64,000 bases of DNA from a plasmid. Of this stretch, positions 50,201 through 53,200 are shown piece by piece. The stretch lies in assembly GCF_057098645.1 (NCBI RefSeq), contig NZ_JBXSPU010000003.1, one strand, 5' to 3'. Each line of letters opens with the position of its first letter. Position 1 is the first letter of the stretch. Made by a program: the position numbers.

Positions 50201-53200
50201 GTCCCGTATTCAAAGAAGCGACTAAACTTCAGCTTCCTGACGTCCTTCACTCTGGTCAAAACATCGCAGTCTTATACGTTAACGTTCCCTGGGGTACTTC
50301 GTCCGTTCCTGATGTTGCTGGGGGGATTAATTCAGGAATTTATGACGGAAAAATTATTGAAGCGACGGAATGCCCAGTTTGTCATCTTTGATTATTTGCG
50401 AAAGTCCCGGCGCCATTCACACAAAATTACCGATATCGTGAATGATCTTCAGTTGCATACAGTGAACGTACGAATCATGAATGTCCTTACCCAACTTGCA
50501 GATCAGGGGTTCATATCGTTTATATGCGAAGGTAAGAGAGGGGAGCGATCAATTGAAGAGCTTCAGTTTATTCCCTATGCCAGCCGTGACCATTCCGAAG
50601 TGCTGAGCTTCGAGGAATGGATAAGCCCGATCGACTAACTACTGATCGCCGCTCAACGAAGGACGGCCAGAATTTCTATTTCCTTCTTACGCGACTTTGA
50701 TTGACTGCCGACAGACCGATAAGCGTTGTGAGTATGAATATCAAAACCGCGTTCTTCATAGAGCTCCAGCGTAAAGGGAGTCATGCTGTTGGATATGGCC
50801 ACTGAGGCCCCTTTACGATTAGCATCCACCAGCATATCCGCCAGTTTAACATGTGCGCTCTTATCGAACGGTATACCATCATAGCTTACAAAGCTGGTTT
50901 TACTGATTTTGTCATATGGCGGATCGCAATATATTTGGTCACCACCACCTGCAAACTCCAGCGTCTGACCAAAATCTGCGGTTTTCAATTCAACGCTCGA
51001 AAGCCTGAATGAGAGGTAATCAACCTTCTGGATATCCAGACTGAACTGGTATCGCTTTCCCCATGGAACTGAGAACTTTCGCTTCAGGTTGTAACGACAC
51101 AGACCGTTATATCCGAGTCGATTCATCGCGTAGAAAATGGCTGCTCGTTGTAGCGGGGCATCATCAAAACTGGTGCTGTTAAAGGTATTACGCAGCACGT
51201 AGTAATCCTCTTCTTCAAAATGCCTTTCCGCCAGCAGCTGCACTTCTCTGATGAATGCCGGTTTATTTCGCTGTATGTTGCGGTACAGATTGATTAGGTC
51301 CGGGTTGCTGTCTGCCAGGAGAGCCTCGGTGGCAAACATGTTCAGAAACACGGCGCCACCGCCGATAAACGGTTCAACCCAGCGTCGGCTCTTATCATGT
51401 GGGAAGTGCTTACTGAGGAACGGCATCAGTTTGGTTTTACCCCCCGCCCATTTGATGATTGGTGTATGTTTTCGCAACGAGTCTTCTCCGTTCAGCTTTA
51501 TCGGTATGCCACACTTATGGTACCGAAAGGCGGATTGCTACCAATAAGGTATGAGCAGGAAAAAACGTGGCTTTTGTTAACGAGATTGTCATTTCGACAC
51601 ATTTTTTAATTTTTTTTCACTTCTCAGAAAAAAGTTTATCCTTTACGAATTAACCATAACCATCTGTTTTATTTGAGTTATTTTTTCTTTTTGTTCTGAT
51701 CGCCAGAACAATTTTCCTCGTTCAATTCGGAATAGACCCAAAAAGTACCTTTTTAACGAAAAAGTGAGATTTTTTTTTCCGGTAGTATTCACGCACAGAT
51801 GAAAGGTATGACAAAAAAGAATTCAACGGAGTATCTATGAGTGATCTGATGACTGATTCCCAACAGCAAACTAACTCACGGGTCTTTAAATCCCCACTCG
51901 TGTCTTTTTCAACAGTGACCGGTTCCGGCCGATTCGTCAGTGGTATGAAGCAGTTCCGCGACGCGAACCCTGACCTTTGTAATGAAGTCACTGAACAGAA
52001 AGCATGGGCTATCAGCCCAACCGTGGTTCAAATCACGGAAGGATTCAACTCCCGTGAGATGGGAATGGGGGAAGCTTATTACCAGTTGCCAGAAGTCGCC
52101 GATCATCTCAATAACATCAAGAATGCGTACATCCGGGGTGATTACGTAGACCCTATCCGCGTTCTGATCAAAGACGGCATTCCGTACGTTCGCCAGGGAC
52201 ATTGCCGTTTAAAGGCTGCTTTGATGGCTGTGGCAGAAGGGCATTCTAACCTCACCATTCTTTGCATCGAGATGAAAGCCGATGAGATCAGCTGCGAATT
52301 GACAACGATTGACGGAAACCGTGGCTTGGCTCTTTCTCCTGTGGCTTTGGGTGAATCCTACCGACGTCTTCAGGCGCTGGGTGGATGGTCGCTTGACCGT
52401 ATTGCCGAACGTGAGGGAAAAAGTAATACCACAATTGCTGCTCTTATTCGTTTAACCGGCTGCTGTGTCTATCTCAAAAAACTGATCCATGCCGATGCCA
52501 TTTCCTATGTAGCAGTCCTGTCCCTTATCGATGAGTTCGGTGAAACGGAAGCTGTTGCGCGGATCGAAAAGATGATCGCAGACCTTGAAAAGGCTGATTC
52601 AAGCGGTATCCAGATTAAGAAAACGCCACGCGGGCAGATCCGTGTTGTCCCTTCCGATTTTAAACCCGCACGTGTTCCACCAGTTCTCGCTACAAAAGCC
52701 GTCGAAGGGGTCAAACTCATTACGACGAGTCTATTGCAGAAACTCGGTGATATCGAGTTGCCGGAGGTGACCGACTCCAGCGAAGATGAAGAAATTACCT
52801 TTACGCTGAACCGGAGCATGCTGGAGATGCTCAAGAACCTGCAAAGTGAGATTACGGAATCAGAAAACAAGCAGCTTCGCCGGGCCGAAAATCGGCAAGC
52901 CCGATTGAAAGGGGAAAAAGTGACTTACAAAACCAAGAAAAACGATAAAAATGGCGGAGAACCGCAATCCGAAACACCCCCAGCACAGGCTTAAATGAAT
53001 TATTTCAGAGTGTGAGAAGACTACAATAAGAAGTACGATATTTTAGAGCGAGCCACCCAGGCTCTCCCCCCGTTGCCCCTACTATGTAGGGGTTTTTTTG
53101 TCCTGTCTCCGGCCCGTTTCTTCTGATTAAAACCACATCTGTCTTTCTGACTTTCCGCAGTGTTAATTTCTCCATTTTCATGTCAGCCAACCTATTAGCT

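Follow-up and report, generated by a model that had tools for sequence, protein, structure and literature searches.

The window analysed here, a stretch of 64,000 nucleotides, is backbone DNA of an R27-type IncHI1 resistance plasmid: it is 100% identical to IncHI1 plasmids, and its gene set is that of R27. This DNA is present in 281 plasmids, whose recorded hosts are all Enterobacterales, bacteria that carry a chromosomal dam gene. It contains two replicons, RepHI1A and RepHI1B, and between them a gene for a putative DNA adenine methyltransferase.

The methyltransferase gene, R0041 (50653 to 51477, minus strand), encodes a predicted protein of 274 amino acids, with a TTG start codon and a GGAG motif 8 nt upstream of it. 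The protein has the same accession in this plasmid and in R27 (WP_001225593.1), where it has long been annotated as 'DNA adenine methylase'. The first-pass annotation had recognized a dam homologue here, and this was borne out. The product matched Pfam PF02086 (E 9.5e-54; 183 bits for a cutoff of 22) and TIGR00571 'dam' (230 bits, cutoff 115), and it aligned over its full length with E. coli Dam (EcoDam; 2g1p, E 8.5e-41) and likewise end to end with DpnM. It scored 171 bits against NF008152, the equivalog model for chromosomal Dam, far below the cutoff of 441. Judged by these profiles, R0041 is an N6-adenine DNA methyltransferase of the Dam family (D12 class), but it is not an orthologue of the housekeeping enzyme. 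Comparison of the IncHI1 and IncHI2 genes indicated purifying selection (pN 0.19, pS 0.85; proportions are given and dN/dS was dropped because synonymous sites are saturated), and the synteny around dam is identical in IncHI2.

The catalytic motif D185-P-P-Y188 of R0041 matches D181 to Y184 of EcoDam, an FxGxG-type motif is kept too, and F37 and D56 align with the AdoMet-binding residues F35 and D54. Six of the seven GATC-reading residues of EcoDam (K9, Y119, N120, L122, R124 and P134) are also conserved. The roles of the base-contact residues are those described for EcoDam (PMC4417163), in which Y138 helps to read the first base pair; that position is occupied by R in the IncHI1 Dam and by H in the IncHI2 Dam. 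The two enzymes thus have in common their fold family, an end-to-end alignment, the DPPY motif and six base contacts, but they are only 34% identical, and R137 and N132 are substituted in R0041 as well as Y138. R0041 further differs from EcoDam in its TTG start, its location on a plasmid and its regulation together with transfer genes. The predicted specificity is most likely GATC, although the substitution of Y138 and the low score against the chromosomal model count against it.

R0041 is flanked by R0040 and R0042. R0040 (49817 to 50638, plus strand) codes for a 273-residue protein and converges on dam, the 3' ends of the two genes being 14 bp apart. Its family is restricted to IncHI-like plasmids, and no match to it was found in Pfam, NCBIfam, PADLOC or PHROGs. 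The best PDB matches of its AlphaFold model (pLDDT 78) were RepE, domains 2-3 of RctB and the WH1 domain of RepA, so that a Rep-like fold with two winged helices, and not a nuclease, is predicted. On the other side, divergent from dam, R0042 (51837 to 52994, plus strand) codes for a putative ParB-like DNA-binding protein (HTH_ParB, phrog_1033) and is highly expressed in R27. R0043 follows on the plus strand (53258 to 54934 in the RefSeq CDS; the mechanical ORF runs from 53180 to 54934). It combines DUF4942 with a C-terminal methyltransferase domain, and its matches to Pfam DUF4942 and MTS and to phrog_6263 'DNA methyltransferase' (E 7e-115) identify it as a second orphan DNA methyltransferase. 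None of the neighbors of dam matched a nuclease family in the same four libraries. As far as can be judged from its sequence context and the predicted fold of R0040, R0041 is an orphan (solitary) methyltransferase, with the same arrangement of R0040 and R0042 in IncHI2. Between dam and R0042, a palindrome centred on a GATC, TTGTTCTGATCGCCAGAACAA (51691 to 51711), was considered as a conserved methylation-sensitive operator and discarded, as it is not conserved in IncHI2.

Orphan methylases are general on large conjugative plasmids (PMC11602122). Like the orphan and ParB-linked enzymes of those plasmids, R0041 adjoins ParB-like genes and a second methylase and is expressed with transfer functions; it differs from the ParB-linked methylases in being a plain Dam-type enzyme, with no ParB fusion and no sign of single-strand specificity.

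In the RepHI1A replicon, the initiator gene repHI1A (42021 to 42896, minus strand; Pfam Rep3_N/Rep3_C) adjoins the Tra2 gene trhA, the position that its counterpart R0036 ('repHIA') has in R27. The initiator is 44% identical to P1 RepA over 92% of its length; a search of PDB sequences with RepHI1A gave no match. The origin contains five iterons with the core AAATGCTTTTC (42949 to 43057), spaced by 21-22 bp, whose cores are invariant in the RepHI1A-region alignment. The last of them overlaps a conserved GATC at 43052, a fifth site of this origin that had been overlooked in the first-pass annotation. Beyond the iterons lies a cluster of four GATC (43097 to 43143) at 43097, 43117, 43127 and 43140, with spacings of 20, 10 and 13 bp. 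The first lies within GTGATCT and the other three within TTGATCT, which on the rep-sense strand gives three AGATCAA and one AGATCAC. Two DnaA-box-like 9-mers in tandem, TTTTCCACA and TTATCCACG (43149 to 43166, minus strand; 8/9 positions each), abut the cluster and are conserved in the same alignment. Downstream of the gene, an array of approximately 12-15 iterons spaced by 43-44 bp (40944 to 41548) takes the position of P1 incA, which serves copy-number control.

The RepHI1B replicon is built similarly. Its initiator gene (59779 to 60660, minus strand), repHI1B, is R0050 ('repHIB') of R27; it matches Pfam Rep3_N, homologous replicons are typed as IncHI1B, and the product is 42% identical to P1 RepA. 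Five origin iterons with the core CCCGGTATAGTGGAT (60696 to 60803), spaced by 21-23 bp, are conserved in the RepHI1B-region alignment. They are followed by a GATC cluster (60839 to 60881) with sites at 60839, 60856, 60867 and 60878 and spacings of 17, 11 and 11 bp. A DnaA-box-like 9-mer, TTATCAACA (60900 to 60908, minus strand; GTGGATAA in a related Pantoea plasmid), marks the outer edge of the origin, and a second one, TTATGCACA (60677 to 60685), adjoins the rep start. Downstream of rep, seven to eight iteron copies in inverted orientation (59262 to 59749) form a putative incA-like control array. The 391-bp intergenic region holds nine GATC, a count that had escaped the earlier reading. The initial description of both clusters as TTGATC repeats holds for three copies in each; it does not fit the copy at 43097 or the additional one at 60839, which reads GGATCG.

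GATC is neither enriched nor avoided globally in the window, with 234 occurrences for 244 +/- 15 expected. Locally, the density reaches 66-78/kb in the clusters compared with 3.7/kb for the whole window. Exactly two clusters of four GATC in 47 bp were found in the 64 kb, both at the origins and both approximately 200 bp upstream of their respective rep genes, for 0.06-0.12 expected. At least two such clusters would arise with a probability of 0.006 under random placement, and they were obtained in none of 300 dinucleotide shuffles. The proposed tight clustering at both origins was thereby upheld. DnaA-box-like sites number 19 in the 64 kb, and the two origin regions account for four of them.

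Between IncHI1, IncHI2 and the Pantoea plasmid, no intergenic block is better conserved than the GATC repeats. All five RepHI1A GATCs are invariant in four lineages, IncHI1, HI1B-like and IncHI2 among them, down to 71% identity (Fisher p 2e-7). The three TTGATC repeats of RepHI1B are kept as far as the Pantoea plasmid, which has a rep of 73% identity; of the intergenic GATCs of RepHI1B, only these copies and a shifted fourth persist there. Over the whole RepHI1B intergenic region, the conservation of GATC columns did not exceed that of the remaining columns (Fisher p 0.30). A third cluster, with five GATC in 100 bp (44567 to 44657), lies inside the 66-codon ORF R0038 and served as an internal control for GATC decay over the same distance. 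This cluster, too, had been overlooked in the first-pass annotation. A functional role was rejected for it, as it is away from the origins and keeps three of its five GATC in the HI1B-like lineage and one of five in IncHI2.

Both initiators are homologous to P1 RepA, with 42-44% identical residues across 92-96% of the length and E values from 1e-57 to 1e-66. In the P1 annotation, oriR has a DnaA box and, in a stretch of 55 bp, five 'Dam methylation sites'; then come the five iterons of incC, the repA gene and the nine iterons of incA. P1 and both IncHI1 replicons share one arrangement, which runs from the DnaA boxes through the GATC heptamers and five iterons spaced by about 21 bp to rep and a downstream control array. 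The heptamers are alike, AGATCAA in the IncHI1 origins and AGATCCA/C in P1. In contrast, the iteron sequences are unrelated, the IncHI1 origins have four or five GATCs at other spacings, and there are two such replicons per IncHI1 plasmid, with a RepFIA-like third elsewhere on R27. Given the iterons, the P1 RepA-like initiators and the oriR architecture, both candidate sites were correctly identified as origins. The GATCs, spaced by 10-20 bp, would permit SeqA to bind. For P1 itself, a dependence on Dam and SeqA is reported (Abeles & Austin 1987; Abeles et al. 1993).

Other members of the same RepA family are RepFIB/REPI of pColV-K30 and the initiators of the SSU5 and SJ46 phage-plasmids, the matches being annotated 'RepFIB replication protein A'. 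In the SSU5 origin, AGATCCC repeats that bear GATC lie between a DnaA box and the iterons, as the heptamers do in IncHI1, although the RepFIB, SSU5 and SJ46 backbones differ from that of IncHI1. As only three of about six SSU5 heptamers contain GATC, the repeat may matter for reasons beyond methylation. A role of Dam in the REPI replicon is indicated (Gammie & Crosa 1991). Vibrio cholerae oriII, a plasmid-derived iteron origin with a high GATC density, uses Dam and SeqA (PMC2865523). There, however, the initiator RctB is of another family than the IncHI1 Rep proteins, and the sites that it binds contain the GATCs and have to be methylated for binding, whereas IncHI1 resembles P1 in that most of the conserved GATCs are found outside the iterons. 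In a literature search that did not extend to the 1994 replicon papers or the 2000 R27 genome paper, no study of either IncHI1 replicon in dam or seqA hosts was found. By their homology and layout, RepHI1A and RepHI1B are very probably P1-type origins with functional GATC cores. Control coupled to methylation in the manner of P1 and oriC is the best reading, because of the homology of Rep, the layout and the conserved GATC repeats, and this part of the first-pass proposal can be retained.

The other part of that proposal, a need for the plasmid to provide Dam itself for initiation, was not supported. The R27 deletion Del1 (40,355-46,955) removes R0041 and yet is viable and stable in the Dam+ strain MG1655 (PMC4853401). 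Del1 also lacks the RepHI1A origin region, R27 has three replicons, and stability was tested in a Dam+ host only; because of the lost region and the three replicons, Del1 is uninformative on any single origin. In the 113-kb Pantoea plasmid, the GATC cluster of the RepHI1B-type origin is the only tight cluster, and there is no dam. R0041 is probably an orphan GATC methylase that is unneeded in Dam+ hosts. In published data, it was expressed in R27 at 80 units (25 C) or 144 units (37 C), and it rose to 624 units (7.8-fold) at 25 C in the derepressed htdA mutant drR27; this induction pertains to donor cultures of a regulatory mutant and not to transconjugants. In the same comparison of drR27 with R27, R0037-R0040 were up 4-19-fold. 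Weak steady-state expression and a rise with the transfer regulon suggest that R0041 could act at the time of transfer, a role that we put forward tentatively. A search for work on any IncHI plasmid Dam found none.

Several other explanations were weighed. In one of them, a strong version of the first-pass proposal, the plasmid's GATC-dependent origins are licensed by a Dam of its own that serves this purpose, making replication independent of host Dam and extending the host range into Dam-less bacteria. The conserved GATC cores of P1-type origins are in line with this idea, and Dam homologues also occur on P1/P7-like and SJ46/SSU5-like phage-plasmids with P1-family RepA. In addition, Dam is co-conserved with RepHI(1/2)A in IncHI1 and IncHI2, with about 1,390 records for Dam (at least 60% identity) and about 1,400 for rep, which is explained by the shared backbone. 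The stability of Del1, the occurrence of the same origin type without a plasmid dam in Pantoea, the very low steady-state expression of R0041 and the restriction of recorded hosts to Enterobacterales make dedicated licensing decidedly unlikely. A pure anti-restriction or anti-defence function, in which R0041, R0043 and R0154 (elsewhere on R27) pre-modify the DNA with no role at the origins, fares somewhat better but is still rather unlikely. The generality of orphan methylases on such plasmids, the second methylase and ParB-like genes next to R0041, its induction with the transfer regulon and PADLOC matches to Type II and orphan methyltransferase models all speak for it. It is weakened because DNA from a Dam+ donor would already be GATC-methylated on the transferred strand, and hemimethylated DNA is generally a poor substrate for MboI/DpnII-type enzymes. 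Moreover, GATC is undepleted in the window, so that nothing in it points to selection by enzymes that cut at GATC.

It is still less probable than dedicated licensing that R0041 is an epigenetic regulator, the extra Dam altering transfer or host gene expression through promoter GATCs or transiently disturbing mismatch repair. Dam-controlled transfer genes are known on other enterobacterial plasmids, and the co-regulation of R0041 with the transfer regulon would fit. However, no conserved promoter GATC pair was found when looked for, the dam/R0042 palindrome is not kept in IncHI2, and host Dam is present anyway. A type II restriction-modification (addiction) module with dam as the methylase and R0040 as the nuclease is barely credible. 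Such close convergence resembles that of many restriction-modification pairs, and the top PADLOC model for dam is 'MTase_II', but R0040 matches no nuclease or defence model, its predicted fold is that of the winged-helix initiators RepE, RctB and RepA, and Del1 was obtained without toxicity; we discarded the pair for want of a family match in the four libraries and for the Rep-like fold. Finally, the clusters might have arisen in AT-rich intergenic DNA by chance or as a by-product of simple repeats, as the one in R0038 appears to be a chance occurrence. This is rejected on the cluster statistics, the position homologous to the P1 Dam sites and the invariance of the GATCs across lineages.

The explanation that we favor, with moderate preference, combines P1-type GATC origin cores with an accessory orphan plasmid Dam; this overall confidence is a compromise between the high confidence in the origin cores, the slightly lower one in a dispensable orphan methylase and the tentative assignment of a transfer-time role. 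Each origin consists of one or more DnaA boxes, an AT-rich segment with four to five AGATCAA heptamers that bear GATC, five iterons, rep and a downstream control iteron array. By homology to P1 oriR, the GATC cluster would be the site of origin opening, its state being read through adenine methylation. The fully methylated origin would be competent to initiate, and the new, hemimethylated one would be bound by SeqA and held back. Methylation could come from whichever Dam the cell has, the host enzyme being sufficient. R0041 is a separate conserved gene of the IncHI backbone and would be accessory to origin function, not required for it. Its job would most likely be to provide more Dam activity around conjugation, so that new plasmid DNA, both origin cores included, would be fully methylated quickly. 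A more specific form of this proposal is unlikely as it stands: R0041 would be an 'establishment Dam', induced with the transfer regulon, that shortens the SeqA-sequestered hemimethylated period of both origins and allows earlier replication in the transconjugant than host Dam alone. Such an enzyme may be part of an HtdA-controlled island, R0037-R0043, together with two ParB-like proteins, the Rep-like winged-helix protein and the second methylase.

The observation of GATC clusters accompanied by a plasmid dam is confirmed as real and mostly ordinary. At the sequence level there is nothing new, every feature being already in R27; descriptions of the RepHI1A and RepHI1B replicons date from the 1990s, and Dam sites of the P1 type belong to textbook knowledge. 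What the analysis achieves is to separate conserved P1-type GATC origin cores, which are solid, from a dependence on the plasmid's own Dam, which is unsupported. Plasmids of the IncHI1 and IncHI2 groups are among the main vehicles of tet(X4), of mcr and of multidrug resistance in typhoid. Should the IncHI origins share the Dam and SeqA dependence of P1, Dam activity would be a lever on the maintenance of these plasmids. If it is true that R0041 speeds establishment after transfer, this would give a concrete function to one of the unexplained orphan methylases of large conjugative plasmids.

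The origins of the two replicons share one layout. Moving away from the start codons of repHI1A (R0036; 42021-42896, adjoining the Tra2 gene trhA) and repHI1B (R0050; 59779-60660), both on the minus strand, there are five iterons (42949-43057 and 60696-60803, spaced by 21-23 bp over both origins), a short spacer, GATC repeats and DnaA-box-like 9-mers. The 9-mers are in tandem at 43149-43166 in RepHI1A and found at 60900-60908 in RepHI1B, with another on the rep side (60677-60685). Four of the 19 DnaA-box-like sites in the 64 kb (at most one mismatch) fall within the 925 bp of the origin regions. 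Downstream iteron arrays larger than the origin sets are present at 40944-41548 (RepHI1A) and 59262-59749 (RepHI1B). ORFs of 153, 193 and 97 aa at 41113-41767 were rejected as genes, being products of the 43-44 bp periodicity of the RepHI1A control array. In the RepHI1B control array, GA directly precedes some iterons (59441-59470 and 59668-59693), giving GATCCACTATACC or GATCCATTGTACC, and GATC overlaps the initiator site in this minority of copies, a situation that brings to mind Vibrio oriII, in which methylation within iterons is important.

The first-pass annotation had proposed that both origins hold tight GATC clusters, and this was borne out. Four GATC within 47 bp occurred at exactly two places in the window, 43097-43143 and 60839-60881, compared with 0.06-0.12 such clusters expected (P for at least two, 0.006 or less). 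GATC density was 66-78/kb in these clusters versus 3.7/kb overall, and the window showed no global GATC bias (234 observed vs 244 expected). An origin density no higher than that of the whole window, which the first-pass annotation had named as a ground for refutation, was thus not observed. A third cluster that the first-pass annotation had not mentioned, with five GATC in 100 bp (44567-44657), is located inside the 66-aa ORF R0038 (44525-44725, plus strand) and is probably due to chance. Three of its five GATCs were kept in the HI1B-like lineage and one in IncHI2; as this coding-region cluster decays over the same evolutionary distance, it is a useful negative control for the origin clusters.

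Conservation was analyzed in four lineages per origin. For RepHI1A, the intergenic region was aligned with its counterparts in pHCM1, a Leclercia plasmid of the HI1B-like type (81% identical) and an IncHI2 plasmid (71%). None of the five GATCs varied: 20/20 GATC columns were conserved, as against 45% of the remaining columns (Fisher p 2e-7). The best-conserved intergenic stretch was GTGATCTTT...TTGATCT...TGATCTAAAGAATTGATCTA together with the DnaA boxes. In a Pantoea plasmid (rep 73% identical), the RepHI1B-type origin keeps its DnaA box and all three TTGATC repeats between flanks that cannot be aligned, and the fourth GATC is displaced by 1 or 2 bases. When the RepHI1B intergenic region was taken as a whole, GATC columns were not significantly better conserved than the rest (p 0.30), indicating that only the repeat core carries the signal.

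The two Rep proteins belong to the Rep_3 initiators and share 42-44% identity with P1 RepA across more than 92% of their length. The richly annotated P1 record has the order seen in both IncHI1 replicons: a DnaA box comes first, followed by five 'Dam methylation sites' in a 55-bp stretch, the five incC iterons, repA and, last, nine incA iterons. On the rep-sense strand, the heptamers are AGATCAA (three copies) and AGATCAC in RepHI1A, AGATCAA (two copies) and GGATCAA in RepHI1B, and AGATCCA or AGATCCC in P1 oriR. SSU5, of the RepA family, similarly has a DnaA box, AGATCCC-type repeats, only some with GATC, and then iterons. By every sequence-level test of membership, the two origins thus belong to the P1 oriR/RepFIB family, in agreement with the likeness to P1 initially suggested. 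In P1 and oriC, SeqA binds the hemimethylated origin, which resists initiation in that state.

The plasmid methylase gene, R0041 (50653-51477, minus strand), codes for 274 aa from a TTG start preceded by a GGAG Shine-Dalgarno sequence. Its identification as a dam homologue was upheld by matches to PF02086 (E 9.5e-54) and TIGR00571 (230 bits) and by end-to-end alignment with DpnM and E. coli Dam (EcoDam). Identity to EcoDam is 34%, with F35, D54, R95 and DPPY conserved. Of the EcoDam residues that read GATC, R124 (fourth base pair), L122 and P134 (third), the intercalating Y119, and N120 and K9, which make further contacts (PMC4417163), are kept. Y138, a residue involved in reading the first base pair (PMC4417163), is replaced by R in IncHI1 and by H in IncHI2, and N132 and R137 are substituted too, making GATC specificity probable rather than proven. 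R0041 scored 171 bits with the chromosomal-Dam equivalog model, well below the cutoff of 441. R27 encodes the same protein (WP_001225593.1), the HI1B-like lineage an 88% identical one, and approximately 1,100 IncHI2 plasmids a 70% identical one in identical synteny. Between IncHI1 and IncHI2, pN was 0.19 and pS 0.85 (saturated), which indicates purifying selection. A palindrome with perfect 8-bp arms and a central GATC (51691-51711; TTGTTCTGATCGCCAGAACAA), also flagged by the terminator scan, is present in the divergent intergenic region between dam and R0042; its conservation does not extend to IncHI2.

The sole candidate cognate nuclease was the convergent neighbor R0040 (49817-50638, plus strand), a protein of unknown function with no match in Pfam, NCBIfam, PADLOC or PHROGs. 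Its AlphaFold model (pLDDT 78), derived from an alignment only 11 sequences deep, best matched RepE, RctB domains 2-3 and RepA WH1, weakly (top E 9e-4, TM-scores of about 0.3) but consistently winged-helix initiators. The candidate was rejected on the lack of a library match and this predicted fold. R0041 is therefore a Dam-family orphan, neither a housekeeping equivalog nor part of a restriction-modification pair. R0040, whose family is found only in IncHI-like plasmids (14 clusters), is encoded between the two replicons and, from its predicted structure, may be a third Rep-like DNA-binding protein, a cryptic one.

R0043 (53258-54934, plus strand), with DUF4942 and a C-terminal methyltransferase domain (phrog_6263 'DNA methyltransferase', E 7e-115), is by sequence another orphan DNA methylase, encoded two genes away from dam and downstream of the ParB-like R0042 (51837-52994, plus strand). 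The arrangement resembles that of ParB-linked methylases in plasmid leading regions. R0042, divergent from dam, is among the R27 genes with the highest expression and is induced under transfer-permissive conditions. Its ParB-like paralogue (43431-44507, plus strand; both are phrog_1033) directly follows the RepHI1A origin; no ParA partner adjoins either gene. Genes for large Ig-like-domain proteins, a class reported as required for IncHI conjugation (PMC6764697), flank RepHI1B (55523-58027, plus, and 61052-61648, minus; 28406-30790 in the annotated record).

Gene content and order are common to the annotated record and R27 (NC_002305), with ORF numbers assigned here from published R27 tables. 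R0037-R0039, between repHI1A and R0040, encode a ParB-like protein, the 66-aa ORF and a zinc-finger protein, the last shortened from 235 to 188 aa. An accessory insertion relative to R27 (approximately 45289-49800), between R0039 and R0040, carries an ArsR-type regulator (45392-45718, minus strand), a truncated ArsP-type permease (45818-46477), the lincosamide nucleotidyltransferase gene lnu(G) (47397-48200) and an ISL3-family transposase fragment (48433-49254). Positions 49500-53000 are 100% identical to about 200 IncHI1 plasmids from Escherichia, Salmonella, Klebsiella, Citrobacter and Enterobacter, including the tet(X4) plasmid pYPE10-190k.

The further proposal, that the plasmid supplies its own Dam for these origins, was not supported. 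Four lines of evidence argue against a need for it, in the known hosts at least. NZ_CP103404, a 113-kb plasmid from Pantoea with a RepHI1B-like rep, has no Dam homologue (no tblastn match better than E 3.8), and its sole cluster of three GATC within 30 bp is about 200 bp upstream of that rep. All 281 plasmids with this DNA came from Enterobacterales, which have chromosomal dam (PMC4417163). Among 19 R27 deletions, only Del16 lowered stability (Tassinari et al., PMC4853401); Del1 (40,355-46,955), obtained in MG1655, removed R0037-R0043, R0041 included. As Del1 also removes DNA upstream of repHI1A, R27 was then running on other replicons. Expression of R0041 in R27 is very low: the published tables give 80 units for 25°C and 144 for 37°C, and class a gene with less than 100 in both conditions as 'not expressed'. 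RepHI1A was published as a 'minimal replicon'; as R27 dam is separated from repHI1A by 3.7 kb and from repHI1B by 9.5 kb, minimal replicon clones presumably had no dam.

What R0041 might do is suggested by the derepressed htdA mutant drR27, in which it rose 7.8-fold at 25°C (624 vs 80 units) but not at 37°C, together with R0037-R0040 (4-19-fold; R0040, 18.6-fold), according to the published R27 tables. Its expression thus tracks the transfer regulon. Following conjugation, the strand that enters would be methylated and its new complement not, leaving every GATC hemimethylated, both origin cores included. By analogy with P1 and oriC, SeqA would bind the cores and initiation would be held back; additional Dam at this stage would cut the delay. 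It would also complete protective methylation, and a purely anti-restriction function is a serious rival; regulatory roles may also be considered. We prefer the reading that R0041 may raise Dam activity around transfer, with both of these effects.

The origins, GATC clusters and orphan dam are all present in R27, whose replicons were described in 1993-94 and whose genome dates from 2000; published tables for R27 name R0041 as a 'DNA adenine methylase'. Our search of the accessible literature found no study of R0041 function.
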